NCBI GenBank assembly: GCA_964609125.1
Contig: CAZSQX010000002.1
Coordinates: 102,621-166,620, forward strand
Direction of reading: 5' to 3'
DNA length: 64,000 nt
Source of the DNA: an uncultured bacterium
Lineage (GTDB): Bacteria > Eisenbacteria > RBG-16-71-46
Shown here: positions 14,443 to 57,751 of the stretch, piece by piece
How positions within the stretch are numbered: position 1 is the stretch's first letter
Layout of the letters: every line of letters begins with the position of its first letter
Notes under the pieces: generated by a model
Databases searched by the model: none
The model's input: the letters and a program-made list of their open reading frames with translations, nothing else
Told to the model about the DNA's origin: nothing
Made by a program: the position numbers and the translations under genes

Positions 14443-14716
14443 GTCGGAGCGCGCGCACGACGGCGCGCACGGGCCGCGGTCGGTCCGCTCCGGGGCCCCG
14501 GCCGATGTCCGGGGCCCGGAGCTTGCACGCGCCGCCCCGCGCCTCGTAGGCTCCCGCCCCTCGCGCCCGGAACACGTTGTGCCGACACGGCCTCGTGCGT
14601 GTCGTCGCGGCGGGCCGGCGCCTCCGACGTCCCGCGTTTCGGCAGGGCGGCGCCGCACTGTGCGGCGGCCGCGAGCCCAGTACCGGGCTTCCGACATAGT
14701 GCCTAAGGAGAACGAG

Positions 14717-20462: not shown

Positions 20463-20837
20463 GGGTCGGTTCCGGGGTTGCCGCACGGGCCCGGCACGAA
20501 CCGGGCGCCGGCGGAGCGTGAGCGTCGCGCATCCTAGGGGAGGCGCGGCGGCCGGAGCGACCGGCACTCCGGCTCGACGCATTCGCATGCACTTACGTCG
20601 GTCCCGGATGGTCCGGCGGGCTTCTGCGCAGAAGCGAGAGTGCCGGGTGGCCGATAGGTGGCCCATGGGCACCCGGCCGGCGGGCGCCGGCTCGCGATGA
20701 ACGGACGAGACGGCCCGACGGCCGGGTGGGAGCGGCTTGTCGCCTCCCCCCGGCCCTCGTACCCTACCGCGCGTGCGGTCCGGATCGGCGGCCCGAACGT
20801 CGCGACCGGAGTGCGTGATCCACATGGAGGTGGTCCT

Positions 20838-27140: not shown

Positions 27141-27250
27141 GCCCGGGCCGGGATCGATTCACCCGCGGGGACCCCGCTTCGCGGCCCCACTCGCGAATCG
27201 ACGCCGCCCCGACCCGGCTTCCGAGGTGCCGAATCGATGAAAGCCATCTA
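27141..27250. repeat. ~100-bp palindromic repeat element, copy A (inverted relative to copy B)
   Basis: The reverse complement of ~27141-27242 matches 30377-30477 with about 5 mismatches in ~101 bp. Contains nested inverted subrepeats (tcgattc/gaatcga, ccgggccggg/cccggcccgg). Intergenic. Confidence 0.75.
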
Positions 27251-30376: not shown

Positions 30377-30509
30377 TTCATCGATTCGGCGCCACGCAAG
30401 CCGGGCCGGGGCGGCGTCGATTCGCGGGTGGGGCCGCGAAGCGGGGTCCCCGCGGGTGAATCGATCCCGGCCCGGGCCGGCGGTGATGCGGAATCAGCGA
30501 AAGCCATCT
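30377..30509. repeat. ~100-130-bp palindromic repeat element, copy B
   Basis: See copy A. Copy B carries extra imperfect terminal inverted ends (ttcatcgattcgg ... cggaatcagcgaa). Lies 7 bp after the cytochrome lipoprotein stop. Confidence 0.75.
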
Positions 30510-41978: not shown

Positions 41979-42647
41979 TCAGGCCACGCTCTCGTCGGCG
42001 TGGTGCTTGATGATGCGGGCCTCGGCGATGAACACGACCTCCTCGGCCACGTTCGTGGCGAGGTCGCCGATCCGCTCCAGGTTCCGCCCCACCAGCACCA
42101 GCGTCATCGAGCGCTCCACCTGCCGCGGGTCCTCGATCATCCGCCCCATCAGGTCGGCGAACAGACGCCGGTGGAGCGCGTCCACCTCGTCGTCCCGCCG
42201 CACGAGCTTCCGGGCCGCCTCCGCGTCCCGGCGCACGAAGGCGTCCAGGGCGTCCTTGAGCATCGCGATGGACTTCTCGGCCAGCTCCGGCAGGTCGGAG
42301 AGCGGGCGCACCGGGGCCTGGCTCGCGAGCCGGCGGGCGCACTCCGCGATGTTCACCGCGTGGTCGCCCACCCGCTCCAGGTCGTTCGAGATCTTGAGCG
42401 CCGAGGTGATGAGCCGCAGGTCACGGGCGAGCGGCTGCTGCAGCGCGAGCAGCTGGACGCAGTGCTCCTCGATGTCGATCTCCATCCGATCGATTGTCTT
42501 GTCGTCGGCCAGGACCTCGTCCGCGAGCGCGGGGTCGCGGCGCATGAGCGACTCCACCGCCTTGCGCACGATGCCCTCCGTGCGCCCGCTCATGAGCAGC
42601 AGCTCCTGCTGGAGCCGCGCGATCTGTTCGTCGAATTGCCGTTGCAT
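41979..42647 (-). CDS. phoU: phosphate signalling complex protein PhoU
   Basis: Two PhoU repeats (DxxxDxxE...ERIGD motifs: NDLERVGDHAVN and NLERIGDLATN). Start at M151 of ORF 41979..43097, with a GGAG RBS. Confidence 0.85.
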   Translation of the reverse strand: MQRQFDEQIARLQQELLLMSGRTEGIVRKAVESLMRRDPALADEVLADDKTIDRMEIDIEEHCVQLLALQQPLARDLRLITSALKISNDLERVGDHAVNIAECARRLASQAPVRPLSDLPELAEKSIAMLKDALDAFVRRDAEAARKLVRRDDEVDALHRRLFADLMGRMIEDPRQVERSMTLVLVGRNLERIGDLATNVAEEVVFIAEARIIKHHADESVA

Positions 42648-42739
42648 GTCGGGGGGCTCCTCGGTCGCGCCGGCATCGCCCGCGCGGGTCAGGGTCCGCG
42701 GCGGCGGGCCCGCGCGCCGCGCGCGGGCCCGCGACCAGA

Positions 42740-43582
42740 CTAACCGAACCGGCCCGTGATGTAGTCCTCGGTGAGCTTCTCGCGCGGGCTCGTGAACACC
42801 CGCCGGGTGTCGTCGACCTCCACCAGCTCCCCCTGGAGCAGGAACGCGGTGCGGTCGGAGATCCGCGCCGCCTGCTGCATGTTGTGGGTCACGACCACGA
42901 TCGTGTACCGGCCCTTGAGCTCCAGGATCAGCTCCTCGATTCGGGTGGTCGCGGTCGGATCGAGCGCCGAGGCCGGCTCGTCCATGAGGATGACCTCGGG
43001 CTCCACGGCGAGGCAGCGGGCGATGCACAGGCGTTGCTGCTGCCCGCCCGAGAGCTGGAGCGCGGACCGGTCGAGCCGGTCCCGCACCTCGTCCCACAGC
43101 GCGGCGCGGCGCAGGCTCTGCTCGACGCGCGGCGCCAGCGCGTCGCGGTCGCGCACACCCAGCATGCGCAGGCCGAACGCCACGTTCTCGAAGATGGACT
43201 TGGGGAACGGGTTCGGCCGCTGGAACACCATGCCCACGCGCCGACGCAGCTCGACCACGTCCGTCCCGGTCGCGTACACGTCCTGGCCCGAGACGTTCAG
43301 GCTGCCCGTCACGCGCACGCCGGGGATGAGGTCGTTCATGCGGTTGAAGGAGCGGAGCAGCGTGCTCTTGCCGCAGCCGGACGGGCCGATGATCGCGGTG
43401 ACCGCGCTGTTCGGGATCTCGAGCGTGATGCCCTTGAGCGCGTGGTGGCTGCCGTAGTGGAGGTGGAACCCGCGCGCGGCGAGCCGCGCCTCGGCCGGCC
43501 GCTCGGGCGCGACGGTCTCGCGTTCGGGCACGTGCGGCCGGCTCACGAGCGTCGCGCTTCGTTCGGGGGTGTCGACGGTCAC
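42740..43582 (-). CDS. pstB: phosphate ABC transporter ATP-binding protein PstB
   Basis: Walker [10 protein letters not shown], signature LSGGQQQRL, Walker [15 protein letters not shown] start. Confidence 0.9.
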
Positions 43583-43583
43583 G

Positions 43584-44531
43584 TCAGCCCTTTCCCAGGA
43601 GGCGGGCCCGCAGCCGGGCCCGGAGGAGGATGGCGGTGAGGTTGAGCAGGAACGTCAGCACGAGCAGGACCAGCACCGTGCCGTAGAGCAGCGGTCGGGT
43701 CGCGTCCACGTCGGGCGACTGGGTCGCCAGCACGAACACGTGGTAGCCCAGCTCCATGAACTGGTCGGTGGGCGACTTGGGGAGGAACGGCAGGAAGTAG
43801 GCCGCGCCCGTGAACAGGATCGGCGCCACCTCGCCCGCGCCGCGCGCCACCGCGAGGATGGCCCCGGTGAGGATGCCGGGGAGGGCCTGCGGCAGCAGCA
43901 CGTGCCGCACCGTCTGCCAGCGCGTGGCGCCGAGCGCGAGCGACGCCTCGCGCTGGTCCCGGGCCACGGTGCGGAGCGACTCCTCGGTGGTGACGATGAC
44001 CACGGGCAGGTTGAGGAGCGCGAGCGTGAGCGCGGCCCAGATCAGCGCCGGCTGGCCCCAGACCACGTCGAGGCCCATCGCGCGGTCCATCTCGCGACCG
44101 ATGAACTGGATGAAGAAGCCGAGCCCGAACAGCCCGAACACGATGCTCGGCACGCCGGCCAGGTTGTGCACCGCGAAGCGCACCGCCCTCGTGGTCCAGG
44201 CGTCCTGGCGCGCGTAGAGGTGGAGCCACACCGCCGCGCCGACGCCGAACGGGATCAGCGCCACGACCATCAGCACCACGAGCAGCACGGTCCCGTAGAT
44301 CGCGGGGAAGATGCCGCCCTCGGTCATGCCCTCGCGCGGCGCGCCGGCGATGAACTCCCACGTCACCGCGCCCCAGCCGTTCCACGCGATCTCGCCGAGG
44401 ATGACCGCGACCATGGCCACGACGAGCAGCGCCGCGAATCCCGACAGCGCGGTGAACGCGGCCCCGCCCACGTCGATCCGGCGCCCGGGCCGGGCGAGCG
44501 GAGCCACCGCGGGCAGGCCGGCCGCGGTCAC
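43584..44531 (-). CDS. pstA: phosphate ABC transporter permease PstA
   Basis: GTG at 44529..44531 overlapping the pstC stop (GTGA). Six TM helices and an EAA-like loop. The N-terminal half of ORF 43584..45383 is artefact. Confidence 0.85.
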
Positions 44532-45478
44532 GCGCCCGCCAGCCGCTTGCGCAGCCGGTCCACGAACACGCCCGCCACGACGTTGATGAGGAACGTCACG
44601 CTGAACAGGAGCGCGCCCAGGAAGAACAGCGTGGCGTAGTGGGGGCTCCCGACCACGACCTCGGCCAGCTCGGCGGCGATCGTCGCGGACAGCGTGCGGA
44701 CGGAGTCGAACGGCGTGAACGAAGTGATGGCCGCGTTCCCCGAGGCCATCAGCACGATCATGGTCTCGCCCACCGCGCGCGCGAGTCCCAGCAGGCAGCC
44801 CGCCGTGACGCCGGCCGAGGCCGCGGGGAGCGAAACGTGCCAAGCCGTCTGCCACGGGCTGGCCCCGAGGCCGAGCGAGGCCTCGCGGAACGCGCGCGGC
44901 ACCGAGCGCAGCGCGTCCTCGGCCACCGTGAAGATGGTCGGGATGATCCCGAGTCCGAGCGCGACGCCGGCCGTGAGCGCGTTGAGCCGCATGGGCGATC
45001 GGGTCACCGACTGGAGCCACGAGGCCAGCACCATCAGTGCGAAGAAGCCCATCACCACCGACGGGATGCCCGCGAGCAGCTCGATCGCCGGCTTGAGCGC
45101 CTCGCGCACGCGGGGCGGGGCGAACTCCGCGCTGTAGACCGCCGCCAGGACCGCGAGCGGCACCGCGAAGACCAGCGCGATGACCACCACCTTGAGCGTG
45201 CCCGTGATCAGCGGCACGAGCCCGTACTTGGGCACCTCCCCCACCGGCTGCCAGAGCGGCGTGGCGAGGAATCCACGCAGGCTGGACTCCTTCTGGACCC
45301 CGGGGTCCACCAGGATCGGCCACGCCTCCTTGAACACGAACAGCACGATGAGCGCGAGCCCGGCCACGGCCGAGAACGCGCACGCGCGCAGCAGGAACTC
45401 GATCGCGCCCTCAACGGCGCGGAGCCGCACGCGTGCCGCGTTCGGCCGGGGGGCGGGGGAGGCGCCGGGGATGGCCAC
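44528..45478 (-). CDS. pstC: phosphate ABC transporter permease PstC
   Basis: GTG start; six TM helices; EAA loop region. Confidence 0.85.
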   Translation of the reverse strand: MAIPGASPAPRPNAARVRLRAVEGAIEFLLRACAFSAVAGLALIVLFVFKEAWPILVDPGVQKESSLRGFLATPLWQPVGEVPKYGLVPLITGTLKVVVIALVFAVPLAVLAAVYSAEFAPPRVREALKPAIELLAGIPSVVMGFFALMVLASWLQSVTRSPMRLNALTAGVALGLGIIPTIFTVAEDALRSVPRAFREASLGLGASPWQTAWHVSLPAASAGVTAGCLLGLARAVGETMIVLMASGNAAITSFTPFDSVRTLSATIAAELAEVVVGSPHYATLFFLGALLFSVTFLINVVAGVFVDRLRKRLAGA

Positions 45479-46305
45479 TAGTTGAGCGGGAAGTATCCGA
45501 CCTCGGCCGCAAGCTGCTGGCCCTCGGCCGACAGCACCCAGTCCACGAACTTCTTCGCGTCGCCCGCCGGGGGCTTGCGCAGGTAGAAGAACAGCGGTCG
45601 CGATAGCGGGTAGCTGCCGTCCCTGACCGCCGCTGCGCTCGGAAGGACCGCCGCGGCCTGCGCGTCCTTCTTCATCGCCACCTCGCGCACGCCCTTGGCG
45701 TACGCGGCGCCGCCATAGCCGATCCCGTTCGGGTCCTTGGAGACCGCGTTCACGACCGCCGCCGTGCCGGGCAGCGTCTGGACCCGCGCCGAGAAGTCTC
45801 GGTTCGCGAGCACGTGCTCCTTGAAGAACCCGTAGGTACCGGAATTGTTCTCGCGGCCGTACAGGATGATGGTGGCGTCCCGGCCGCCCAGATCCTTCCA
45901 GTTGGTGATCGTGCCCATGTAGATGCCCTTCAGCTGCTCGACGGTGAGGGACTGCAGCGGATTGCCCGCGTGCACGTACACCGCGAGGCCGTCCTTCGCC
46001 ACCGGGATCTCGACCCCCATCGTCTGGTAGCGGTCCCGGAGCTTGAGCCTCTCGTCCTGCTTCATGCTGCGAGAGGACTGGCAGATCTCGGTGGTGCCGT
46101 TGATGAGGGCGGCGATGCCGGTGCCCGAGCCGCCGCCGGTCACCATGACGACCTGCCCCTTGTTCTCGTTCATGAACTGCTCGGCCCAGCGCTGGCCGAG
46201 GATCACCATGGTGTCGGAGCCCTTGACGGTGATGGGCCTTCCGGCGGCGACCGGCGAGGCGATCGCCGCGACGAGCGCGAGCGAAGCGAGGCTGCGTCGA
46301 TTCAT
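45478..46305 (-). CDS. pstS: phosphate-binding protein PstS
   Basis: Signal peptide; phosphate-binding motifs (GSDTM..., GGGSGTG). GGAGGG RBS. Confidence 0.85.
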   Translation of the reverse strand: MNRRSLASLALVAAIASPVAAGRPITVKGSDTMVILGQRWAEQFMNENKGQVVMVTGGGSGTGIAALINGTTEICQSSRSMKQDERLKLRDRYQTMGVEIPVAKDGLAVYVHAGNPLQSLTVEQLKGIYMGTITNWKDLGGRDATIILYGRENNSGTYGFFKEHVLANRDFSARVQTLPGTAAVVNAVSKDPNGIGYGGAAYAKGVREVAMKKDAQAAAVLPSAAAVRDGSYPLSRPLFFYLRKPPAGDAKKFVDWVLSAEGQQLAAEVGYFPLN

Positions 46306-46321
46306 GATCCCTCCGTTCCTC

Positions 46322-47569
46322 TCAGAACTTGTGCTGGAGTTGGATGGTCCACAGGTTGTCGTGCGGGTCGGTGAACGCGCCGCCCGCGGCGGGGGAGTCG
46401 GTGGAGATCGCGTCGTAGGACACGGTGACGCGGGTGAAGCCGTCGAAGTACGCGTTGAGCCCGAGGCTCCAGCGCTCGTACTGGTCGTGGTCGACGTCCA
46501 CGTTGGGGTCGTAGGTGTCGAAGCGGACCACGGCCTGGAAGCGCTCGCCCAGGTTCTGCACGCCCATGAGGTACCAGCCGCGCACGTCGGTGGCGAGGTG
46601 CGAGGCGACCGCGCCGGCCTTGAGCAGCCGGTTCGGGTTGGCCGAGGTGGGGGCGACGACCAGCGTGCGCACCGAGTCGGCGTTCACGTCGTGGCCCGAG
46701 AAGAACTCGCCGCGCAGCGAGCCGCCGCCGACCTGCGGCAGCGTCCAGAACGCCTGGGCGTCGAAGCCGAGCCGGGTCTTGTCCGTGGTCACGTCGGCCC
46801 CGGTGAGCGGCGTCACGTGCCGGCCCCGGTAGCCCGAGACCGCCGCGTCCCACGCGCCCTGGGACCAGCGCACGCGGCCCACGACGTCCTTGGACTTGGT
46901 CGGGTCGGTGGCGGGGAAGTCGGCGCTGTTCACGCCGCCGCCGTTCAGGATCGCGATCACGGTGCGCAGCTGCGGCCGCCACTGGCTCTCCAGCTTCAAC
47001 CCGCGGTCGCGCTCGCCCGAGAACAGCACGTTCTCGGCGCGCGAGCGCTCGGGGAGCTCCCGCACGCTCGAGGAGCGCTCGATCTCCCAGCCGAACGGCA
47101 CGTTGAACTGGCCGAGCGTGAGCTGGTGGTCGTGGAGCGGCGTCCACGGGTCGAGCAGCGTGACGTAGGCCTCCAGCAGGCGGATGGTGCGATCGGCTCC
47201 GCCGTCGATGTAGACCACCGCCTGCGACAGCGGGCTCGAGTCGTAGGCGAGCTTGAGGCGCGCTCGGCGGATGAAGAAGCGCGTCGCGTTGGGCGCCGAG
47301 ATCGTGCCGGCCGCGCCGCTCACACGGACGCTGTCGCTGCTCGCCTCGCTGAACTCGGTGCGGGCCTGCACGTAGCCCGAGAACTTGAACTTCTTGAGCT
47401 TGTCGGTGTCGGCCATGAGCGTCTGGATCTGTTCGTTCAGGCCGTCCAGCAGTCCCTGCAGCTCCGCGCGCGTGACGGCGGCGGTGTCGGCGTCGCCCTG
47501 GGCGAGGGCCGGCCTGGCTCCGGCGGCGCACAGCAGGGCCGCCATGGACACGGACAGGATGTGCCTCAA
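46322..47569 (-). CDS. phosphate-selective porin OprO/OprP family
   Basis: Signal peptide, long beta-barrel, C-terminal ...LQHKF. TTG at 47567..47569 or ATG at 47543..47545 as start. Confidence 0.75.
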   Translation of the reverse strand: MRHILSVSMAALLCAAGARPALAQGDADTAAVTRAELQGLLDGLNEQIQTLMADTDKLKKFKFSGYVQARTEFSEASSDSVRVSGAAGTISAPNATRFFIRRARLKLAYDSSPLSQAVVYIDGGADRTIRLLEAYVTLLDPWTPLHDHQLTLGQFNVPFGWEIERSSSVRELPERSRAENVLFSGERDRGLKLESQWRPQLRTVIAILNGGGVNSADFPATDPTKSKDVVGRVRWSQGAWDAAVSGYRGRHVTPLTGADVTTDKTRLGFDAQAFWTLPQVGGGSLRGEFFSGHDVNADSVRTLVVAPTSANPNRLLKAGAVASHLATDVRGWYLMGVQNLGERFQAVVRFDTYDPNVDVDHDQYERWSLGLNAYFDGFTRVTVSYDAISTDSPAAGGAFTDPHDNLWTIQLQHKF

Positions 47570-47787
47570 GCGCTCCTCCTCGCGGAGCCGGGGGCCTCGC
47601 GCGCGGTCGGCGACGCGGTACTCCCCGGCGACCTCGGGCGTCCGTCGCGGGATGCTCCGGCGCCCGCGTCCATGTTCGGGCCGGGAGAGTTTCGGCAACG
47701 GCTCGCGATGGTTACGGGGAGGTAACAAAGCTGCCGGAATGTCCCGGCGGCCCGCGTCTCGGGCGGTGCGCGCGGCGCGGCCGCGCG

Positions 47788-48229: not shown

Positions 48230-48847
48230 TCAGTCCCGCAGGCTCTGCAACTTGAACGACCCGAGTCGCTCCGCGACCGCGCGGACGTGCGGGAGCCGCA
48301 CCTCGCGCCCCTGCTCGTCGCGCACCACGAGCAGGAGCCCGTTGTGGAGGCGGAAGTTCTTGTAGCCCCGCGCCGGCGCCGTCCTCTCCCAGCGCAGGAA
48401 CTCCAGATGCTGGCCGCCCAGCTCGTTCAGGATCTTCGACACGCCGCCGCGCAGCCGGGCGTCGAGCAGGAACCACGCGTCGTCGGCAGTCAGCCCGGTC
48501 GCGGGCCGGCTCTCCGGGAACTCCCGCCACAGGATCCCGGCGAACTCGTCGCGCGTGAGACACAGCCGCCTCAGCGAGTCGGCGCTGGTGTGGTGGATGG
48601 CGTGCACGAGGCGGCGCCCGAGGTCGTCGAGGCTCGACGCACCGTCCCGGAACCGCGCCTGGACGAGCGGCGCGTCCAGCCGGCGGCCGAGGCGGACGCT
48701 CGCCGAGTCGGGGTCGGCCGCGGGCCGGTAGCCCGGCGCGTCGCGCAGCGCGGGGTTCACGTCGTAGGCGTGCACGACCGTGGCGGTGACCAGCAGCGCC
48801 AGGGCGCAGGCCGCGGGGCGGAGCCGGCGGGCCGGGGATCCGATCAT
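48230..48847 (-). CDS. secreted hypothetical protein
   Basis: Signal peptide MIGSPARRLRPAACALALLVTATVVHA; no recognisable domain. Confidence 0.45.
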   Translation of the reverse strand: MIGSPARRLRPAACALALLVTATVVHAYDVNPALRDAPGYRPAADPDSASVRLGRRLDAPLVQARFRDGASSLDDLGRRLVHAIHHTSADSLRRLCLTRDEFAGILWREFPESRPATGLTADDAWFLLDARLRGGVSKILNELGGQHLEFLRWERTAPARGYKNFRLHNGLLLVVRDEQGREVRLPHVRAVAERLGSFKLQSLRD

Positions 48848-48860
48848 CGAGCTCGCCTCC

Positions 48861-51758
48861 TCAGGATCCGAACGAGACCGACAGCGAGAACGCCGGTCCC
48901 GGCTTCGTGCGGTAGTACTCGACCGGACCCTGCCGGCCGGTCACCGTGACGTCGGTCAGGTTGGTGCCCGAGAGCTTCACGCGCACCGCCGGGCGCGGCC
49001 GGGCGCTGACCGAGGCGTCCACGGTGGTGACCGGGTCGTCCCAGAAGTCGGGGGCCACGTCGATGCCGAGCGCCGCGAGCTTGCGGCCGGTGTGCGACAC
49101 GAGCAGCGTGGTCTCGAAGCGCTGGTCCTGGGTCGCCCAGGTGAGCCCGGCGTTCAGCAGCCGGTCGGCCTGGCCCTGGAGCGGATGGACGCGACGCACG
49201 AGCGTGGTCGTGAACGCGGGCAGGCGCACTTCGGAGTCGATCCACGAGGCGTTGGCGTTCAGCGACAGGCGCCGGAGCGGCCGCCACACCCGGCCGAGCG
49301 AGGTCCGCAGCTCCAGCTCGAGCCCGCGGTTGCGGCCCGACTCCGAGTTCGTGGGCGTGAAGTAGGGCTCGTTGCCGCCGCGCGCCGACAGCTCCACGGG
49401 CTGCAACAGCCCCTTGTGGAACACGCCGACCGCGACCAGCTCGCCGAGCGAGGGAAACAGCTCCCAGCGCACGTCGTAGTTGTCGAGCCGCGCCCGGTCC
49501 AGGTCGGGGTTCCCGGTGAACACGAAACCCGGCAGGTCGCGCAGGCCGGGGACGTAGTCCTCGATCTGCTGTGGCGCCAGCTCGTTCACGTCCGGACGGG
49601 ACAGCGTGCGGCTCGCGCCGAGGCGCAGGCTCATGCTCTCGCGCGGATTCCACGTCAGGTTCGCGGACGGGAGCAGGTCGGTGTGGTCGAACTCCCCGAA
49701 CGCGGTGGTGTGCCCGTCGAACAGGTGGAAGCTGCGCACGCGCTGCATGCCGTACTCGAGCCGGGCGCCCAGCGTGGCCCGCAGGCGCGGGCCCAGCGGC
49801 AGGTCGAGGCTCATGAACGTGGCGGCCTGGTACTGCTGGGCGCCGTAGTTGTCGTCCGGGCGGGTCCATTCACGCACGTCCGCGCCCTGGAGCGTCCCGG
49901 TCCAGCGCTCCGGCGCGAACATCTCGCCGGGGGACAAGGTGTCGCCGCCGGGCGGCGGCACGAAGTAGAACCGCCGCATCCAGAACCGGCGCTCCTTCCA
50001 CTGGTCGCTGATCCCGGCCAGCCAGCGGCCCTGGCCCAGCCCGCCGGCGCGGAACGGCGTGCTCCACGACAGCTCGGCGCCGCGCCCGCGCTCGTCCATG
50101 TCGCTGAACTCGCGCGTGGCGCCACGGGTCTGTCCGCGCAGCGACCAGATCTCGCGCACCACGTCGTTGCCGTCCGGGTCCGTGAGCACGATGTCGCTGC
50201 GCTGGTAGTTCGATTCGCGCATGTCGGGCACCACGCGATCGGCGCGCGAGCGGCTCAGCTTCCAGTCCACGCGGCTGCCGTTCAGCGAACGGAACTCGTG
50301 CCGTCCCTCCAGGCTCCCGGTCAGGATGCTGCGCTCGACGTAGCGCAGGCGGTCGGAGCGGATGCGGTCCTGGATGTCCTCGCTGAAGCCATCGAACGAG
50401 CGCACCTCGTCCTCGGCGTCGCGGTTGTAGAAGCCGCGCAGGTGCAGCGAGTGCGCGGGCGCGAGGCGCACGCCCACCGCCGCCAGGCCGCCGAGTTGCA
50501 CTCGATCGCTGCCGCGCTCGACGCCGTAGTCGAACCGGGGCTGGTCGGGGACGCCGTTCGCGAAGTCCTGGCCCACGTAGTAGCGCGAGCGCTCGGTCTG
50601 GATCTCCTGGGACCGGCTGTAGTTCCCGGACGCGAGCACGCCCACCGAGCGGCCGAACAGCCGGTACTCGTCCCCGAACGAGGCCGCGTAGCTGCCGTTC
50701 GGAGCGACCGAGCCCCGCTCCGGCGTCCACTCCTGGTCGAAGCCGCGGCCGATCTCGGCGCGCTCGGCCGACGTGAGGCCGGTGCCGAGCACGCTGTTGT
50801 ACGTGGTCACGGGCTGCGTCGACGCGAGCCGCTGCAGCGCGCCCGGCAGCGCGCGGGCCGACGCGCCGAGCCCCCACGAGTCGCGTCCCGAGCCGGCGTA
50901 GCGCAGGCCGCGCTCGAACGTGCTCCCGTCGTCCACGCCCTGGCCCGCCGAGAACGACCATTGCCGCCGGCCGGGAAAGTCCTTGGTCTTCACCTGCACG
51001 TCGCCGCCCCCGAACTCCGCCGGGCGATCGGCGGTGTAGGTCTTCTGCACCGTGATGTTCTCGAGCAGGTTCGCCGGGATGATGTCGAGCGGCACGACGC
51101 GCTTGTTGAGCTCGGGCGAGGCGAGCCGGACCCCGTCCACCTCGGTCGAGCTGTAGCGCTCGCCCAGACCCCGCACGTACACGAACTTCCCCTCGTTGAC
51201 CGAGAGCCCGGTGACGCGCTTGAGCACGTCGCCGGCGTCCTTGTCGGGCGAGCGCCGCATCTGCTCGGCGCTCACCGCGTCGGACACCGCGGCGGCCTTG
51301 CGGCGGATCGCGAGCAGGGCGTTGTCGGTGTCCTGGGCGCGGCGCGCCTCGACGACGATCTCCTCCTGCTCGATCGCCTCGGGCGTGAGCGGCACGAGCA
51401 GCTCCTCGGACGGCGCGGCGCCCACGCGCACCCCCGCCAGCTCCTTGCGCGCGTAGGAGAGCGCCTGCACACGCAACGTGTAGATCCCGGGGGCGGCAAG
51501 CAGCTCGAACGTGCCGTCGGCGTTCGTCATGCCGCCGACCCGCCGGAGCGTGGTGTCCGCGGGCAGCAACAGCAGGTTGCAGTACGACATGGGCTCGCCG
51601 GTGTCCCTGGCGACGACCTTGCCGCGGACCCTGCCCGGCGGCTGAGCGTTCGCGACGGACACGAGCACCGCCACCGCGAACGTCGCCGCGACGCACAGCG
51701 TCGCGGTCCACTTCGTCGCCCGGGCGGCCGGGGAGCGGGAGTCGTGATTGCGGTTCAT
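48861..51758 (-). CDS. TonB-dependent receptor with N-terminal carboxypeptidase-regulatory-like domain
   Basis: Start at M44 of ORF 48861..51887. Contains CarbopepD_reg-like RVRGKVVARDTGEPMSYCNLLL, a plug domain, and a long beta-barrel. Confidence 0.85.
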   Translation of the reverse strand: MNRNHDSRSPAARATKWTATLCVAATFAVAVLVSVANAQPPGRVRGKVVARDTGEPMSYCNLLLLPADTTLRRVGGMTNADGTFELLAAPGIYTLRVQALSYARKELAGVRVGAAPSEELLVPLTPEAIEQEEIVVEARRAQDTDNALLAIRRKAAAVSDAVSAEQMRRSPDKDAGDVLKRVTGLSVNEGKFVYVRGLGERYSSTEVDGVRLASPELNKRVVPLDIIPANLLENITVQKTYTADRPAEFGGGDVQVKTKDFPGRRQWSFSAGQGVDDGSTFERGLRYAGSGRDSWGLGASARALPGALQRLASTQPVTTYNSVLGTGLTSAERAEIGRGFDQEWTPERGSVAPNGSYAASFGDEYRLFGRSVGVLASGNYSRSQEIQTERSRYYVGQDFANGVPDQPRFDYGVERGSDRVQLGGLAAVGVRLAPAHSLHLRGFYNRDAEDEVRSFDGFSEDIQDRIRSDRLRYVERSILTGSLEGRHEFRSLNGSRVDWKLSRSRADRVVPDMRESNYQRSDIVLTDPDGNDVVREIWSLRGQTRGATREFSDMDERGRGAELSWSTPFRAGGLGQGRWLAGISDQWKERRFWMRRFYFVPPPGGDTLSPGEMFAPERWTGTLQGADVREWTRPDDNYGAQQYQAATFMSLDLPLGPRLRATLGARLEYGMQRVRSFHLFDGHTTAFGEFDHTDLLPSANLTWNPRESMSLRLGASRTLSRPDVNELAPQQIEDYVPGLRDLPGFVFTGNPDLDRARLDNYDVRWELFPSLGELVAVGVFHKGLLQPVELSARGGNEPYFTPTNSESGRNRGLELELRTSLGRVWRPLRRLSLNANASWIDSEVRLPAFTTTLVRRVHPLQGQADRLLNAGLTWATQDQRFETTLLVSHTGRKLAALGIDVAPDFWDDPVTTVDASVSARPRPAVRVKLSGTNLTDVTVTGRQGPVEYYRTKPGPAFSLSVSFGS

Positions 51759-51883
51759 TCGACACCCCTTCGTTCGGGATGGTCCGGGGCCGACGCCGGG
51801 CCCGTGGTCCACGATGCTTCGGAAGACGCCCGGGGGGGGCGGGCCCGCGCCCGCCCCCCTCCGCAGCCCGTCCTGGCGCCCGC

Positions 51884-54800
51884 TCAACGCAGTCGCACGA
51901 ACCGGCCCGTCGCCTGACGGCCGGGCGTGCGGACCCGGTAGAAGTAGGTGCCCGCCGGGAGCTCGCCGGCCTCCCTCCAGGTGACGGTGTGGGCGCCGGC
52001 GTCCCGCTCACCGCGCGCGAGCGTGCGGACGAGGCGGCCGTCGGCGCCGAACACATCGACGTCCACGCGACCCGCGACCGGCAGCGTGAAGCGGATCTGG
52101 AGCTCGTTCCGCACCGGGTTCGGGAGCGCGAACGCCGTGAACGCGGCGTGTCCCGTCCCGCCGACGTCCGCGGTGGCCTGGCTGCACTGGACGCCGGGGC
52201 CGTAGGCGAACGAGCGGTCGGCGCAGTGGTTGCGGAACGTCTCGGCGCCGTTCAGCTCGAGCGCGTTGCTCTTCCAGTAGGCGATGATCGAGTTCAGGAT
52301 CACGGCGCTCGTCCCGCGGCGGAGGAACACGCCGTCCACGACGCCCGAGCCCGCCGTCTTATCGCCGAGGATGGTGAAGTTGGAGAGGGTGGGGAACGAC
52401 CGCCCCGAGCACAGCTCGGTGGCGTTGTTGAACTCGTTGTTGTCCGCCTCGATGCCGCGTTCCGTGCCCGCCGCCCCCGTGATCTGCCGGATCACCACGA
52501 ACTGCGCCTTGCCCCGGTAGCCCATCTGCCAGTCGAAGCCGTCGTCCTCGCCGTAGGTCAGCACCAGGTGGCTCACCTGCGCCGTGCCCCCGAACAGCTC
52601 GAACAGGTCGTCCGAGCTCCGGTGGCTCTGGATGTGGTGGATCTCCGTGCCCGAGCCCACCGCGTTCAGCGTCAGCCCGTTCGCCTCGTTGTTCGGCCCC
52701 ACCTGCACGCCCGCGAACTCCGAACGCAGATAGCGGATCACGCCGCTGTCGTCCGCGTCGTCGTTGCCGCCGTAGTGGCCCACCACCCCGCCCTCCGAGG
52801 CGGCGGAGTCGCCGGCGCACGAGTTCACCGCGTTCGTCCGCGCCCGGCCGTGCACGAAGATGCCGCCGATGCCGCCCGGCGTCTGCGAGCCCGGCGCCGC
52901 GTCCGACGTCAGCACGATCGGCGCGTACGACTCGCCCAGCGCGAAGATCTTCGCCCCGCGCTCGATGATGATGGTGCCGACGGTCGCGGTCTCCTCGAAG
53001 ATGTGCGTGCCGGCCTGGATCGTGAGCGAGGCCTGCTCCTTCACCCGCAGCTGCCCGCGCACCAGGTAGTTCGAGTCCGCCGAGAACGTGCGGTCGGAGT
53101 AGAAGTTGTGGTTGTCCACCACCACCACCGGCCGCACCGGGAACGTCCGGCCCCCGCCGTCCAGCCCGTAGTACGTCCACCCCGCCGTCCAGTCCGGCTC
53201 CGTCGCGCCGAGCGCGCCGGCGAAGTCCACCTGCCGGAAGAAGCCGTCGTTCGGCAGGTCGAGCACCGGGTGCAGGCCGTTCGCGCAGAACGCGGGCGAG
53301 CCCGCCGCCGGCCGCCAGTTCGGGCTCGCGGTGACGAGCGCGCCCGAGAGCAGCGGGTCCAGGTTGCTGTTGCGCGTGAACTGGACCGTGGCGATGCTCA
53401 CCGTCGTCGAGTCGAGACCCGGCACGCACGGGCTGCCCGCCGAGGCCGCGCCCGCGTAGTGGTCGCCGCCCGAGGCGCCGTTGTCCCACAGCAGGTTGCC
53501 GTCGAAGACGACGGGGTCCGGGTTCACGCCGGCCGCGCAGGCCGCCGCGGGCACGAGCCCCGCGACGCCCGCGCGGTCGGCGCAGTGGTTGGCGAACGTC
53601 TCGGCGCCGTTCAGCTCGAGCGCGTTGCTCTTCCAGTAGGCGATGATCGAGTTCAGGATCACGGCGCTCGTCCCGCGGCGGAGGAACACGCCGTCCACGA
53701 CGCCCGAGCCCGCCGTCTTATCGCCGAGGATGGTGAAGTTGGAGAGGGTGGGGAACGACCGCCCCGAGCACAGCTCGGTGGCGTTGTTGAACTCGTTGTT
53801 GTCCGCCTCGATGCCGCGTTCCGTGCCCGCCGCCCCCGTGATCTGCCGGATCACCACGAACTGCGCCTTGCCCCGGTAGCCCATCTGCCAGTCGAAGCCG
53901 TCGTCCTCGCCGTAGGTCAGCACCAGGTGGCTCACCTGCGCCGTGCCCCCGAACAGCTCGAACAGGTCGTCCGAGCTCCGGTGGCTCTGGATGTGGTGGA
54001 TCTCCGTGCCCGAGCCCACCGCGTTCAGCGTCAGCCCGTTCGCCTCGTTGTTCGGCCCCACCTGCACGCCCGCGAACTCCGAACGCAGATAGCGGATCAC
54101 GCCGCTGTCGTCCGCGTCGTCGTTGCCGCCGTAGTGGCCCACCACCCCGCCCTCCGAGGCGGCGGAGTCGCCGGCGCACGAGTTCACCGCGTTCGTCCGC
54201 GCCCGGCCGTGCACGAAGATGCCGCCGATGCCGCCCGGCGTCTGCGAGCCCGGCGCCGCGTCCGACGTCAGCACGATCGGCGCGTACGACTCGCCCAGCG
54301 CGAAGATCTTCGCCCCGCGCTCGATGATGATGGTGCCGACGGTCGCGGTCTCCTCGAAGATGTGCGTGCCGGCCTGGATCGTGAGCGAGGCCTGCTCCTT
54401 CACCCGCAGCTGCCCGCGCACCAGGTAGTTCGAGTCCGCCGAGAACGTGCGGTCGGAGTAGAAGTTGTGGTTGTCCACCACCACCACCGGCCGCACCGGG
54501 AACGTCCGGCCCCCGCCGTCCAGCCCGTAGTACGTCCACCCCGCCGTCCAGTCCGGCTCCGTCGCGCCGAGCGCGCCGGCGAAGTCCACCTGCCGGAAGA
54601 AGCCGTCGTTCGGCAGGTCGAGCACCGGGTGCAGGCCGTTCGCGCAGAACGCGGGCGAGCCCGCCGCCGGCCGCCAGTTCGGGCTCGCGGTGACGAGCGC
54701 GCCCGAGAGCAGCGGGTCCAGGTTGCTGTTGCGCGTGAACTGGACCGTGGCGATGCTCACCGTCGTCGAGTCGAGACCCGGCACGCACGGGCTGCCCGCC

Positions 54801-54967
54801 GAGGCCGCGCCCGCGTAGAGCCCGGCGCTCGCGCTGAAGACGATGTTGCCGTCGAAGACGACCGGGTTCACCTGGGACTTCGCCGGCGCCGCGAGCGCGG
54901 CCACGAGCGCGAGGGCACGGACCGCCGTGCGGACCGGACGGCGTCCGACCGTGGTGGTGATGCGCAT
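51884..54967 (-). CDS. large secreted protein with internally duplicated ~450-aa module and C-terminal FlgD-Ig/T9SS-type sorting domain
   Basis: AGGAGG RBS; signal peptide MRITTTVGRRPVRTAVRALALVAALAAPAKS; two near-identical modules. C-terminus NPVRNELQIRFTLPVAGRV...GTYFYRV. Confidence 0.7.
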   Translation of the reverse strand: MRITTTVGRRPVRTAVRALALVAALAAPAKSQVNPVVFDGNIVFSASAGLYAGAASAGSPCVPGLDSTTVSIATVQFTRNSNLDPLLSGALVTASPNWRPAAGSPAFCANGLHPVLDLPNDGFFRQVDFAGALGATEPDWTAGWTYYGLDGGGRTFPVRPVVVVDNHNFYSDRTFSADSNYLVRGQLRVKEQASLTIQAGTHIFEETATVGTIIIERGAKIFALGESYAPIVLTSDAAPGSQTPGGIGGIFVHGRARTNAVNSCAGDSAASEGGVVGHYGGNDDADDSGVIRYLRSEFAGVQVGPNNEANGLTLNAVGSGTEIHHIQSHRSSDDLFELFGGTAQVSHLVLTYGEDDGFDWQMGYRGKAQFVVIRQITGAAGTERGIEADNNEFNNATELCSGRSFPTLSNFTILGDKTAGSGVVDGVFLRRGTSAVILNSIIAYWKSNALELNGAETFANHCADRAGVAGLVPAAACAAGVNPDPVVFDGNLLWDNGASGGDHYAGAASAGSPCVPGLDSTTVSIATVQFTRNSNLDPLLSGALVTASPNWRPAAGSPAFCANGLHPVLDLPNDGFFRQVDFAGALGATEPDWTAGWTYYGLDGGGRTFPVRPVVVVDNHNFYSDRTFSADSNYLVRGQLRVKEQASLTIQAGTHIFEETATVGTIIIERGAKIFALGESYAPIVLTSDAAPGSQTPGGIGGIFVHGRARTNAVNSCAGDSAASEGGVVGHYGGNDDADDSGVIRYLRSEFAGVQVGPNNEANGLTLNAVGSGTEIHHIQSHRSSDDLFELFGGTAQVSHLVLTYGEDDGFDWQMGYRGKAQFVVIRQITGAAGTERGIEADNNEFNNATELCSGRSFPTLSNFTILGDKTAGSGVVDGVFLRRGTSAVILNSIIAYWKSNALELNGAETFRNHCADRSFAYGPGVQCSQATADVGGTGHAAFTAFALPNPVRNELQIRFTLPVAGRVDVDVFGADGRLVRTLARGERDAGAHTVTWREAGELPAGTYFYRVRTPGRQATGRFVRLR
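52218..54818. repeat. near-perfect tandem duplication, two ~1.24-kb units with 1359-bp period (approx. 52218..53458 and 53577..54818)
   Basis: Identical six-frame ORFs recur at +1359 (52284/53643 and 52860/54219). Direct reading shows identity from ~52214/53573 to ~53458/54818, with 2 mismatches near the lower junction. Confidence 0.8.
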
Positions 54968-55292
54968 GCTGCCTCCTGGGACTGGTACCGCAGCGGGATG
55001 TCGGTGGCGCGCGCCTTCCGTCGGTGAGCCGACCGCCGGATCCCTCGGGGTTCTCGCCGCAGGGCTCGGCGCGCGCCGGGGGATGTGGGAGGGGCGGGAC
55101 GGCGAAGCGAGGACGTTGATGTGGAGCGCGCGGCGAGCCCGCAGGTGTCATTCCCGAGGGTGTAGACCCGCTCGCCGCGGCCACCCGCTTCCCACGGGGG
55201 ACAGAGTGCGGTGCGGCGAAACGCCGGCCGGTGTCCGCCGTGTTTCGGTCACGTAAGAACCCGCGTCGCCGGAATGCGCGCGACGCGCGGGC

Positions 55293-57056
55293 TCACGCGG
55301 CCGGGGGCGCGAGCCTCGCGGGGATGGAGAAGCGGAACGTCGAGCCCGCCCCGGGCCGGCTCTGCACGGAGACCTCGCCGCCGTGGAGCTGGATCGCGTG
55401 CTTCACGATGCTCAGGCCCAGCCCGGTGCCGCCGCGTGCCGGCCCGCCCTCGCGCGAGCGGGCCTTGTCCACGCGGTAGAACCGCTCGAAGATCCGCGGC
55501 AGGTCGGCCGTCGGGATGCCCGGGCCCGTGTCGCGCACCTCGAACCAGGCCGAGCCCTCACCCGCGCCCACCCGCACCGTAACGCTGCCGCGCTCGGTGT
55601 ACTTGAGGGCGTTGTCGAGCAGGTTGCTCATCGCCTGCTCCACCCGCACGCGGTCCGCTTCGGCCCACGCCGGCCCGCCGGGCTCCAACTCGAGCATGAG
55701 CCCGGTGCGGAGCGAGACGTCCCGCGCCTCGGCCACGAGCCGCGCCGCCAGCTCGCGCAGGTCGAGCCGCTCGCGCCGCAGCGACACGTCGGGGCGCTCC
55801 ATCTCGGCAAGCACGAGCAGGTCCTCCACGAGCGCCTGCAGCCGCACCGCGCCGTCGCGGATCACCCGCACGAAGTGCTCGCGCGCCTCGGGGTCGTCGA
55901 GCGCGCCCTCGAGCAGCGTCTCGGCGTAGCCGCGCAGCGTCGTGAGCGGCGTGCGCAGCTCATGGGACACGTTGGCCACGAAGTCCTGCCGGATACGCTG
56001 CAGCGCCTCGCTCTGCGACAGGTCGTGCAGCACCACGAGCACGGGCTCCGGCTCGGGGCCGCCGAGCGGAGTGACCGTGGCCCGCGCGCTGCCCACGCGG
56101 GTGGCCCAGGGTCTCAGCTCGCGCTCGACGCTGCGCCGCCCGGAGCGCGCGGCGGCGATCATCTCGGCGAGCTCCGGCGTCCGCGTGAAGACCGCGAATG
56201 GCGTGCCCGCCTCGGGCGGGTGCGCGGCGTGCAGCAGCTCCGCCAGCCGGTGGTTCGCGTGCACGACCCGGTCGGAGCCGTCCAGGAGCGCCACGCCGTC
56301 GTCCATGTGCGCGAGGATCTGCTCGCGGTCGTCGCGTTCGCGTCGCAGCGACTCGAGGCGGGCGTCCAGCTCGGAGCGCATCTCGTTCAGCGCCCTGCCC
56401 AGCTGGCCGAGGTCGTCGCGTGGGTCCTCGGGCGCACGCAAGCCGGGCTCGCCCTGGCCGATGCGGCGCGCCACCCGCTGCAGGTCGCGCAGCCGCTCGG
56501 CGAAGCGCGCCCCGAGCCAGGTCAGCGCGAGCAGGCTGGCGAGGAGCGCGACGGACGCGGCGGCCGCGGTGAGCCGCGTCAGCGATCCCGCCACGCGGCT
56601 CACCACCGCGAGCGGCTGCGCCACCCGCAGCACGGCCGCGCCATCGCGCCGCACCGGCACGGCGGCGTACACGTACTCCTCACCGGTCGTGGCCGAGCGG
56701 CGCACCGCGACCCCCTCCCCGCCGGCGAGCGCGCCGCGGACCTCGGGCCGTGCGCCGTGGTTCTCCATGGTCCCGGCGGCGGCGCGCGAGTCGGCGAGCA
56801 CGGCGCCGGTCCCGGCGATCACCGTGGCGCGCAGCCCGAAGCGCTGCTCGAGCGAGTCGGCGGCCGACTGCCAGGACGCCGTATCGGGGCGCGCCCCGCG
56901 CGCCGCCTCGCGGGCCAGGCGCAGGAGCGCCCGGGACTCGTGCTCCACGAGCCAGGCGCGCTGCGACCTCTGCTCCAGCGTGGCCAGCAGCCCGACCGCG
57001 CCGGCCACGATCGCCGCCGGGACGACGATCAGTCGCGCTCGGAGCGAAAGCGTCAC
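55293..57056 (-). CDS. sensor histidine kinase (PhoR-like: TM, HAMP, PAS, HisKA, HATPase)
   Basis: H-box VSHELRTPLT, N/G boxes (NLLDNALKYT, DTGPGIP, GTGLGLSIV). GTG start overlapping the regulator stop (GTGA). Confidence 0.8.
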   Translation of the reverse strand: MTLSLRARLIVVPAAIVAGAVGLLATLEQRSQRAWLVEHESRALLRLAREAARGARPDTASWQSAADSLEQRFGLRATVIAGTGAVLADSRAAAGTMENHGARPEVRGALAGGEGVAVRRSATTGEEYVYAAVPVRRDGAAVLRVAQPLAVVSRVAGSLTRLTAAAASVALLASLLALTWLGARFAERLRDLQRVARRIGQGEPGLRAPEDPRDDLGQLGRALNEMRSELDARLESLRRERDDREQILAHMDDGVALLDGSDRVVHANHRLAELLHAAHPPEAGTPFAVFTRTPELAEMIAAARSGRRSVERELRPWATRVGSARATVTPLGGPEPEPVLVVLHDLSQSEALQRIRQDFVANVSHELRTPLTTLRGYAETLLEGALDDPEAREHFVRVIRDGAVRLQALVEDLLVLAEMERPDVSLRRERLDLRELAARLVAEARDVSLRTGLMLELEPGGPAWAEADRVRVEQAMSNLLDNALKYTERGSVTVRVGAGEGSAWFEVRDTGPGIPTADLPRIFERFYRVDKARSREGGPARGGTGLGLSIVKHAIQLHGGEVSVQSRPGAGSTFRFSIPARLAPPAA

Positions 57057-57751
57057 GCGCCCTCGGGTCCGGGCGGGGCGGCCAGCTTGTAGCCCGCGCC
57101 GAGCACGGTCTCGATCATGCCGTGGTGCTCGCCGAGCTTGGCGCGCAGGCGCCGCACGTGCACGTCCACCGTGCGCGTCTCGCCCACGTAGTCGTAGCCC
57201 CATACCTTGCGCAGCAGCTCGTCGCGCGAGAGCGCCCGGCCGGGATGGCGCGCGAGGAACGCCAGCAGGTCGAACTCGCGCGGCGTGAGGTCGAGCCGGG
57301 AGCCGGCGCAGCTGGCCTCGTGCGCCTCGAGGTCCACCCGGAGCGGCCCGGCCTCCAGCGCTCGCCCGGGGCCGGCGGGCTTCGCCCGGCGGAGCAGCGC
57401 GCGCACGCGCGCCACCAGCTCGCGGGGGCTGAACGGCTTGGTGAGGTAGTCGTCCGCGCCCTGCTCGAAGCCCAGGAGCTTGTCCATCTCGGCCGAGCGC
57501 GCCGTGAGCACGAGCACGGGCAGGTCGTGGGTGAGCGGTTCGGCGCGCACCTCGCGCACGATCTCGAGGCCGTTCAGCCCCGGCAGCATGAGGTCCAGCA
57601 CCAGCGCGTCGGGCCGCGACGCGAACACCTGGCGGAGGCCTTCCTCGCCGTCGCCGGCCGTGGCGACCCGGAAGCCCGCCTTCTCGAGGTTGTAGCGGAC
57701 GAGGTCGCGGATCTCCTTCTCGTCCTCGATCACCATGACCAGGTCGTTCAC
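57053..57751 (-). CDS. OmpR/PhoB-family response regulator
   Basis: Receiver (VMVIEDE, D-box LDLMLPG) plus winged-helix output (TVDVHVRRLRAKL). GTG start. Confidence 0.85.
   Translation of the reverse strand: MNDLVMVIEDEKEIRDLVRYNLEKAGFRVATAGDGEEGLRQVFASRPDALVLDLMLPGLNGLEIVREVRAEPLTHDLPVLVLTARSAEMDKLLGFEQGADDYLTKPFSPRELVARVRALLRRAKPAGPGRALEAGPLRVDLEAHEASCAGSRLDLTPREFDLLAFLARHPGRALSRDELLRKVWGYDYVGETRTVDVHVRRLRAKLGEHHGMIETVLGAGYKLAAPPGPEGA

Follow-up and report, generated by a model that had tools for sequence, protein, structure and literature searches.

A near-perfect intragenic repeat in a surface protein gene of an Eisenbacteria phosphate-starvation operon: an old duplication, concerted evolution and a probable assembly artefact

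A 64-kb stretch of DNA from an uncultured Eisenbacteria bacterium (contig CAZSQX010000002.1, positions 102,621 to 166,620; hereafter the window) carries a gene for a secreted protein of 1027 amino acids (aa) in which two tandem beta-helix modules are encoded by almost identical DNA over 1246 bp. Here, we compare this gene with other assemblies of the same strain, with a conspecific strain and with orthologues from related lineages. We conclude that the full 1246-bp identity in the window is probably an artefact of assembly, and that a version of the gene with heterogeneous modules, found on a second contig of the strain (L027), is probably its true sequence. The two modules themselves are real and, judging from the orthologues, old, and the cores of the modules have evolved in concert by gene conversion within the gene.

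Results

The repeat and its boundaries

The gene lies on the minus strand, and no strand had been given in the initial annotation. Blocks 52214..53459 and 53573..54818, each of 1246 bp, match at an offset of 1359, the sole mismatches being CG at 52233/52234 versus GC at 53592/53593. Self-BLASTN aligned the pair at 99.76% identity over 1249 bp, and a repeat finder run on the window also gave a spacing of 1359. The near-perfect repeat described in the initial annotation is therefore borne out with its bounds shifted by a few bases, and its identity holds under proper alignment; the short six-frame open reading frames (ORFs) that had been seen to recur at the same offset are a trivial consequence of it. 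Outside the blocks, identity at offset 1359 is 16-48% per 50-nt window, the background level at 74% G+C, and chance is thereby excluded as the source of the match. The period is not wholly identical sequence, as 113 bp between the blocks (53460..53572) are unrepeated. Tandem Repeats Finder (TRF) gave no match in the window, its longest period being 500 and a period of 1359 beyond its reach, and BLASTN found no module copies beyond the two within the 64 kb.

The two modules are old and their cores evolve in concert

Full two-module orthologues are present in four Eisenbacteria genomes (L003, L004, L005 and L006+L007, the last split between two contigs at the repeat), and the contigs of two further orthologues (L001 and L002) end within module 1. 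A linker of the form NHCxDR-(8-10 aa)-C-(3 aa)-(V/L/S)(N/D)P(D/G/T)P-(V/I)VFDGN is common to L001-L006, six Eisenbacteria lineages other than that of the window. In all six of these two-module lineages the N-terminal subdomain of the module, about 100 aa long, is of two position-specific types: the type of module 1 (M1-type) reads QFTRNS...NWRPAAGSPAFCANG, and the type of module 2 (M2-type) reads QY.NNS...WVPA.GSPAYAGN.GHG...CF.GA. A tree of this subdomain gathers all M1 copies into one clade and all M2 copies into another. The segment ahead of each repeat block is also position-specific (IVFSASAGLY versus LLWDNGASGGDHY), and the position-specific segments that flank the blocks are shared with L003 and L006. 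At the site of the mismatch, five of the other six two-module orthologues have Arg in module 2 (L002 has Val), and module 1 has a residue other than Arg (A, N or I). The kept linker, the position-specific pre-block segments and the position-specific Ala/Arg mismatch exclude a fresh duplication in the window. On this comparison of sequences, the two-module layout is ancestral to a clade of Eisenbacteria and derives from an old duplication or fusion.

The core tree has a different topology from that of the N-terminal subdomain, with modules grouping by genome and not by position. Synonymous divergence (dS) between modules 1 and 2 is 0.55-0.95 in the N-terminal subdomain and 0.01-0.53 in the core, and the two cores within a single genome are about 71% to 100% identical, in a mosaic pattern. 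In L005 the homogenised part is a discrete tract of about 950 bp at 99.9% identity, with a diverged 5' third. Within-genome likeness of modules over positional orthologues, a duplication older than that likeness, discrete tracts and doubly fixed substitutions are thus all found at this locus, and on these patterns concerted evolution of the cores by intragenic gene conversion, atop the old duplication, is well supported. The gene conversion put forward in the initial annotation does act on this gene, as core modules cluster by genome and strain-specific substitutions occur in both modules of two strains.

One strain yields three versions of the gene

An exhaustive protein search recovered a protein (P0121) that is 96% identical to that of the window. 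Its contig (L024), from a second strain, is 97.7% identical to the window over 13.3 kb; it keeps an M2-type subdomain in module 2 and an M1-type 3' patch in module 1, and 765 bp of its core are identical between the modules. When the four modules of the window and L024 (M1 and M2 of each) were compared site by site, 23 sites were position-specific in both strains, 62 differed in L024 module 2 only, 14 differed in L024 module 1 only, and 5 had a strain-specific base in both modules.

Clustering at 90% groups P0121 with four further proteins. One of them (P0272), on an NCBI contig of 240,610 bp, is identical to the window protein and is probably the same record as the window. A second (P0270) is also 1027 aa long and has heterogeneous modules. 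Its contig, L027, from Joint Genome Institute (JGI) sample 3300037465, has two modules with the homologous linker and differs from the window at 77 positions over 22,117 bp: 2 single-nucleotide polymorphisms (SNPs) in the neighbouring kinase gene (56809 and 56654), 13 differences in 53654..53720 and 62 in 53196..53379. The flank therefore has 2 SNPs in about 19 kb (~1e-4 per site), and the 75 other differences are confined to two patches of the gene. The third member (P0269), of 574 aa, has one module and equals the window protein less one 453-aa period. One-module contigs of the strain came from four more JGI samples (L028-L031; 3300037501, 3300043243, 3300043177 and 3300043267); their flanks are 99.9-100% identical to the window, they run up to 76 kb, and they equal the window less one 1359-bp unit. 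One strain thus yields three versions of the gene, and the locus is unstable in assembly.

Five substitutions that separate the strains of L024 and L027 sit in both modules, offset by exactly 1359, and the cores of the two modules are 100% identical to each other in both contigs. That L027 might be a simple chimera with the co-occurring strain of L024 was considered and rejected: the M2-type subdomains of the two differ at one site, which matches the 0.9% divergence of the gene and argues that L027 is not simply such a chimera.

The last member of the cluster (P0271) is a 417-aa fragment from another strain, on a JGI contig of 1259 bp. The 3' patch of its module 2 is half M1-type (GDLTAG) and half M2-type (GTSAVILNS), a mosaic that suggests short conversion tracts within the species; the contig begins exactly at the boundary of subdomain and core, a typical repeat break. 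One-module versions recur among more distant relatives, in L017, which is 96% identical to L005 in nucleotides and has its signal peptide joined to module 2, and in P0003, a one-module protein that clusters with module 2 of L004. Together with L028-L031 these could reflect either systematic loop-skipping in assembly or real deletion alleles formed by unequal crossing-over. Module number across relatives, which the initial annotation had named as a check on the repeat, is two in the six other lineages, L024 and L027, and one in L028-L031, L017 and P0003.

The full identity is probably an assembly artefact

The k-mers of the window gene, extended by 500 bp at either end, were compared with those of L027. 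Every one of them up to k = 61 occurs in L027, and at all these k the gene can be traced as a valid walk through the heterogeneous contig's graph. Two junctions in the window are novel relative to L027, the first from k = 62 and the second from k = 82 (Table 1). The alternative arms are equal in total length, the offset being 1359 on both sides, and the same locus differs from the window in the other assemblies of the strain (L027 and L028-L031).

At such values of k the subdomain arms (N1/N2) and the arms of the 3' patch (c1/c2) would be equal-length alternative paths between shared vertices, and the linker would be a loop in a de Bruijn graph built from the heterogeneous gene. The two equal-length bubbles, N1/N2 and the c1/c2 patch, would collapse into one consensus; a single walk round the linker loop would then write the same consensus module twice, which is the sequence of the window, and skipping the loop would produce the one-module contigs. 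What still differs between the two modules of the window, namely the type-A/B segment and the Ala/Arg dinucleotide, would be what cannot close as a bubble, the dinucleotide being a fork. This assembler behaviour is one we infer from the walk and the junctions. Rates would favour the same account: N1 and N2 have stayed distinct in every other lineage, with dS reaching about 0.9, and the window and L027 have diverged by ~1e-4 per site. The assembly artefact raised in the initial annotation is therefore a live explanation in a modified form, in which a single true module is unlikely, the two-module architecture is real, and it is the full identity that L027 renders doubtful.

Alternative explanations

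Several observations weigh against an artefact. The window sequence would be real if the 240-kb contig was built from accurate long reads. Collapse of a bubble of ~190 bp whose arms are ~65% identical would, we assume, need an assembler blind to similarity or an imbalance in coverage. No left-over fragment with N2 or c1 was found in the protein cluster, where exact sub-fragments may not be stored. JGI assemblies of the strain gave the heterogeneous or the one-module form and never that of the window. A gene whose modules were truly homogenised could equally have collapsed into the four one-module contigs, since a truly perfect repeat would collapse to just such contigs and four samples gave them. 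Gene conversion, finally, is frequent at the locus, so that a real and full homogenisation is not far-fetched. The chief competing explanation, a possible one to which we give roughly half the weight of an artefact, is that the identity is real: after the split from the L027 lineage, module 2 would have received the M1 N-terminal subdomain and module 1 the M2 3' patch, by two conversion tracts in opposite directions or by one long heteroduplex that was patchily repaired. Conversion is evidently active, with cores 100% identical in L024 and L027 and 99.9% identical in L005, five doubly fixed differences between the two strains and the mosaic 3' patch of P0271; compared with L003 and L006, moreover, the homogenised module of the window mixes M1- and M2-derived states, and the block boundaries fall at the ends of usable homology. 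However, real identity needs conversion across a segment of ~65% identity that is unconverted in every other lineage examined, and also a second, oppositely directed tract; the two would have to fit into a divergence of 2 SNPs in about 19 kb, and the form is seen in the window sequence only, P0272 being the same protein and probably the same record. A fuller version, somewhat less probable again, holds that the homogenised allele is real, that the M2-specific subdomain was overwritten within a clone-level lineage and that one- and two-module alleles coexist. If that were true, this would be a hyper-recombining surface protein of the phosphate-starvation response, with strains varying in module number and subdomain type, and it would provide a natural variant set for learning what the two subdomain types of its protein family bind.

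Unequal crossing-over alone was rejected as the origin of the window allele, because it cannot put an M1-type subdomain behind the linker. Much the same process figures in an improbable account in which the gene has a single true module and the two-module forms are assembly expansions, or in which one- and two-module copies are polymorphic through unequal crossing-over in the 765 identical bp of the core. The one-module contigs of up to 76 kb from four JGI samples, the one-module relatives of L005 (L017) and of L004 module 2 (P0003), and the absence of a left-over N2 or linker fragment from the protein cluster would all fit. Yet the linker and the M2-type subdomain are real, conserved in six other lineages, L024 and L027, and not something that an assembler can invent; a one-module contig is the standard outcome of a loop skip through a long exact repeat; and a deletion allele may coexist and still leave the window unexplained. 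We give very little credence to the idea that a 1.36-kb segment was freshly duplicated in tandem in this genome. The near-perfect identity and constant offset suggest this at first sight, but a fresh duplication would leave no unrepeated spacer, whereas the 113 bp here are unique, in frame and homologous to the linkers of other two-module genes, the flanking segments are position-specific and of types shared with L003 and L006, and the same strain is already two-module in L027. The very recent duplication offered in the initial annotation is for these reasons effectively excluded, by a linker kept in six other two-module orthologues and by flanking segments specific to position. An equally slight chance attaches to programmed phase or antigenic variation that expands or shuffles modules, another suggestion of the initial annotation. 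The protein is surface-exposed, its modules are repeated and their number varies among assemblies; nevertheless, neither simple-sequence tracts nor inverted repeats nor silent cassettes are present in the gene or close to it, no further module copy lies within the 64-kb window, and the nearby genes are those of phosphate uptake, so that phase-variable expansion is unsupported. Everything besides the artefact and a real homogenised allele is, taken jointly, unlikely.

The protein and its family

The gene product is a cell-surface protein, sorted by the type IX secretion system (T9SS), in which two right-handed beta-helix modules lie in tandem. The arrangement given in the initial annotation, two tandem ~450-aa modules with a signal peptide before them and a T9SS/FlgD-Ig tail after them, was confirmed: the C-terminal domain scores 27.3 bits against TIGR04183 (cut-off 23) and 27.2 against PF13860, FlgD_ig (cut-off 27), and 17.8 against PF18962, under the cut-off of 27. 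Each module, of about 450 aa, extends from VNP(DP)VVFDGN to NHCADR; it begins about 20 aa before the cysteine motif AGAASAGSPC and not, as had been proposed, at that motif. The N-terminus (MRITTTVGRRPVRTAVRALALVAALAAPAKSQ) has no cysteine and hence neither a lipobox nor the mark of a lipoprotein anchor, and the protein would be anchored at the surface through its T9SS domain in place of lipid.

Local Pfam and NCBIfam searches with the 1027-aa protein matched the C-terminal domain alone; a match to FAD_binding_4 (25.3 bits against a threshold of 26.4, with no stretch passing) was regarded as spurious. An AlphaFold2 model, with a predicted local distance difference test score (pLDDT) of 91 and a predicted template-modelling score (pTM) of 0.91, consists of a beta-helix core and the N-terminal subdomain, and the fold of the module is a right-handed parallel beta-helix. 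A sequence search of the PDB with the protein gave nothing meaningful, and Foldseek against the PDB gave weak, generic beta-helix matches only. In the module alignment (aa about 254-390 per module), acidic and amide motifs are invariant on successive beta-helix rungs (GGNDDxDxSG, NNEANG, SDDLFExFGG, DDGFDWQxGYRG and GIEADNNE); these motifs, read from the alignment, would build a continuous acidic ladder, which suggests a polyanionic substrate bound via metal.

The Pfam family PF28492 (Beta_helix_4) is precomputed for all 120 homologues listed and for the near-identical P0121 and P0270; a literature search on PF28492/Beta_helix_4 found nothing. Among 1.84 billion representatives, 5,502 proteins match at E <= 0.001, and most of the best 150 of these have 2-8 matched stretches, which makes tandem modules a habit of the family. 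A scan of metagenome contigs returned distant relatives only, at <= 49% identity, and tblastn against plasmid records found homologues in Proteobacteria and Bacteroidota. One homologue, from Sphingomonas parapaucimobilis, is followed by a TonB-dependent receptor gene and gspN/D/E, and in hhalign the family profile matches it with a probability of 99.9% and E = 2e-35, at 38% identity over 261 columns. In Caulobacter and sphingomonads, elpS (cc0170), the cc0171 receptor gene and genes of the type II secretion system adjoin (PMC2996285), and the Sphingomonas gene in the elpS position served as proxy for ElpS in this comparison, in place of CC0170 itself. Because the module is homologous to a gene that occupies the described elpS position, we place the modules, on sequence grounds, in an ElpS-like family.

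The phosphate-starvation neighbourhood

On the same strand as the gene the order is phoB-like, phoR/pnpS-like, beta-helix gene, TonB-dependent receptor, 205-aa gene, 106-aa ORF, porin, pstS, pstC, pstA, pstB and phoU (Table 1); a GNAT acetyltransferase gene and, farther out, an exopolyphosphatase gene are divergently transcribed. The gene is part of a phosphate-starvation operon, and from this pho/pst context it is predicted to be induced by phosphate starvation. In the JGI version the receptor has 965 aa and starts about 126 bp past the stop of the beta-helix gene. A receptor gene lies downstream of the beta-helix homologue at each of the 14 genome loci, even where identity falls to 34%, and follows it immediately in 13, the 205-aa gene intervening in L016. 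The 205-aa gene is beside the receptor in 12 of the 14 (L006 and L007 stop before that position), and the trio is complete in those 12/14 loci, including one in a Krumholzibacteriota genome; the 205-aa protein is thus an uncharacterised third member of the cassette. No SusD-like partner was seen in the window, the 205-aa protein having no Pfam or NCBIfam match and the 106-aa product, scanned against NCBIfam, no match there.

The intergenic region 54968..55292 (minus strand) has blocks kept across five species (window, L003:9660-10020, L006, L005 and L004), for example TTCCGGCGACGCG..GTT.TTACGTG.CCGAAACA and GTGGGAAG.GGGCGGCCGCGGCC.GCGGGTC...TCGGGAAGG, which could be a Pho-box/promoter region or a structured leader. 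In this same upstream region there was no Rfam match and no sigma-70-like promoter, and a promoter/terminator scan was unproductive.

Table 1. Coordinates in the window of the repeat, the gene and its neighbours
Feature	Position	Strand	Basis
Gene for 1027-aa secreted protein with signal peptide, two beta-helix modules joined by a linker, and T9SS C-terminal domain	51884..54967	-	ORF, third-position G+C 0.98
Signal peptide, aa 1-32, ...ALAAPAKSQ/VNP, no cysteine	54872..54967	-	translation; cleavage site inferred
Repeat copy, module 1, aa 51-465	53573..54818	-	offset comparison, self-BLASTN
Linker, unrepeated, plus position-specific start of module 2 (AGVAGLVPAAACAAGVNPDPVVFDGNLLWDNGASGGDHY)	53460..53572	-	homologous linker in L001-L006, L024, L027
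Repeat copy, module 2, aa 504-918	52214..53459	-	offset comparison, self-BLASTN
T9SS type A sorting / FlgD-Ig-like C-terminal domain, aa about 945-1027	51887..52135	-	TIGR04183, PF13860
Two mismatches, partners 53592-53593; Arg codon of FRNHC (module 2) versus Ala codon of FANHC (module 1)	52233..52234	-	
Suspect segment: N-terminal subdomain of module 2, M1-type here, M2-type in same-strain L027 (L027:11589-11772; 62 differences)	53196..53379	-	
Suspect segment: 3' patch of module 1, M2-type here, M1-type in L027 (L027:11248-11314; 13 differences)	53654..53720	-	
Novel junction 1, not in heterogeneous contig L027 at k >= 62	53593..53654	-	k-mer test
Novel junction 2, not in heterogeneous contig L027 at k >= 82	53379..53460	-	k-mer test
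PhoB-like response regulator	57053..57751	-	best NCBIfam model PhoB, 246 bits, under equivalog cut-off
PhoR/PnpS-like histidine kinase, directly upstream of beta-helix gene	55293..57056	-	PnpS/PhoR 338/289 bits, under equivalog cut-offs
TonB-dependent receptor (CarboxypepD_reg, Plug, barrel)	48861..51887	-	
205-aa secreted protein, conserved	48230..48847	-	no Pfam or NCBIfam match
Porin O/P-like gene, followed by pstS, pstC, pstA, pstB, phoU	41979..47728	-	PstS, PstC, PstA, PstB and PhoU all above NCBIfam cut-offs

Other features of the window

Two OmpA-family paralogues (14579..16237 and 20658..22304, both on the plus strand) each comprise a beta-barrel, thrombospondin type 3 repeats and an OmpA domain; they are 80% identical over 910 bp, and both contain internal repeats whose period is about 90 bp (15292-15702 and 21414-21877). 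A pair of inverted repeats of 101 bp, 95% identical (27141..27241 and 30377..30477), flanks about 3.1 kb that hold a PEMT/ICMT-type methyltransferase gene and two ORFs without a family match, with no tRNA gene nearby; the segment could be mobile or invertible.

Discussion

Before a long perfect repeat in a metagenome-assembled contig is taken as biological, it should be compared with further assemblies of that strain. In the present case the comparison indicates that the identity was probably manufactured and names the two decisive junctions. In metaSPAdes, bubble removal is not known to consider the similarity of the arms, and the default k for short reads goes up to 55. The program masks variation by bulge projection, collapses larger bulges than SPAdes and seeks a consensus backbone (PMC5411777). 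Bulge projection and loop traversal of this kind fit a window gene that can be walked in the graph of the heterogeneous contig up to k = 61; the case differs in that the merged arms, at about 65% identity, would be unusually divergent.

Concerted evolution is plain at this locus, where the helix core has been homogenised and one subdomain is still position-specific. Tandem or duplicated bacterial genes such as tufA/tufB and the rRNA operons evolve in concert by RecA-dependent gene conversion. As there, paralogous units resemble each other more inside one genome than orthologous units do across genomes, the tracts of conversion are discrete and new substitutions reach both copies. Unlike those systems, the units here are modules within one reading frame, and one subdomain is unhomogenised in every lineage except, apparently, the window contig.

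Members of the ElpS-like family are abundant exoproteins of phosphate starvation, and a T9SS-sorted, two-module protein of Eisenbacteria is now placed there. This member is new, but the novelty is modest: the mechanism proposed is textbook, the family was known and functionally unsolved, and current understanding is not overturned. Across Eisenbacteria the genes for the beta-helix protein, the receptor and the 205-aa protein stay together as a three-gene cassette, which extends to Krumholzibacteriota. In Caulobacter crescentus, ElpS (CC0170) is a biochemically uncharacterised extracellular lipoprotein made under phosphate starvation, and its overproduction is associated with more extracellular phosphatase activity (PMC2996285). 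ElpS is a surface or secreted protein of about 50 kDa, the size of one window module, and a TonB-dependent receptor gene (CC0171) adjoins elpS as a receptor gene adjoins the window gene. ElpS is induced by phosphate starvation, and its counterpart in the window is likened to it in this respect by the pho/pst context. The two differ in that ElpS is a lipoprotein whose release is aided by type II secretion, whereas the window protein has no lipobox, has a T9SS domain and contains two modules.

A second set of counterparts, FI, FII and FIII of Flavobacterium johnsoniae (Fjoh_3856, Fjoh_0546 and Fjoh_4889), lies in the PUSIII/PUSIV clusters (PMC8115612). Low phosphate strongly induces these proteins, which rank among the most abundant exoproteins and are reportedly related to ElpS; they are modelled as pectate-lyase/polygalacturonase-like and adjoin TonB-dependent transporters (PMC8115612). 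FII is in a phoBR cluster with an OprP porin, a gene set that matches that of the window (PMC8115612). In contrast to the window protein, the three are single-module lipoproteins of another phylum, likened here through their published description, and their PUS clusters differ from the window in that no SusD-like partner accompanies the window gene. Because of the gene context and the literature on ElpS and FI-FIII, our working model has the protein displayed at the outer membrane, where it would capture or process a substrate containing phosphorus for the adjoining receptor.

A multi-module parallel comes from plasmid pBGP9 of Alteromonas macleodii, which encodes a 1356-aa homologue with three tandem modules, each 34-37% identical to a window module. 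This gene (L025, 4436-8506), annotated as hypothetical, lies on a 239-kb plasmid in a cluster of phoB, phoR, pstS, a 2-oxoglutarate (2OG) oxygenase gene, the homologue, a TonB receptor gene and exbB/exbD/tonB. Like the window gene, it stands between phosphate-regulation genes (phoB-phoR-pstS) and a TonB-dependent receptor, the latter with exbBD-tonB; it differs in belonging to another phylum, in having no T9SS tail and in that its modules have visibly diverged among themselves.

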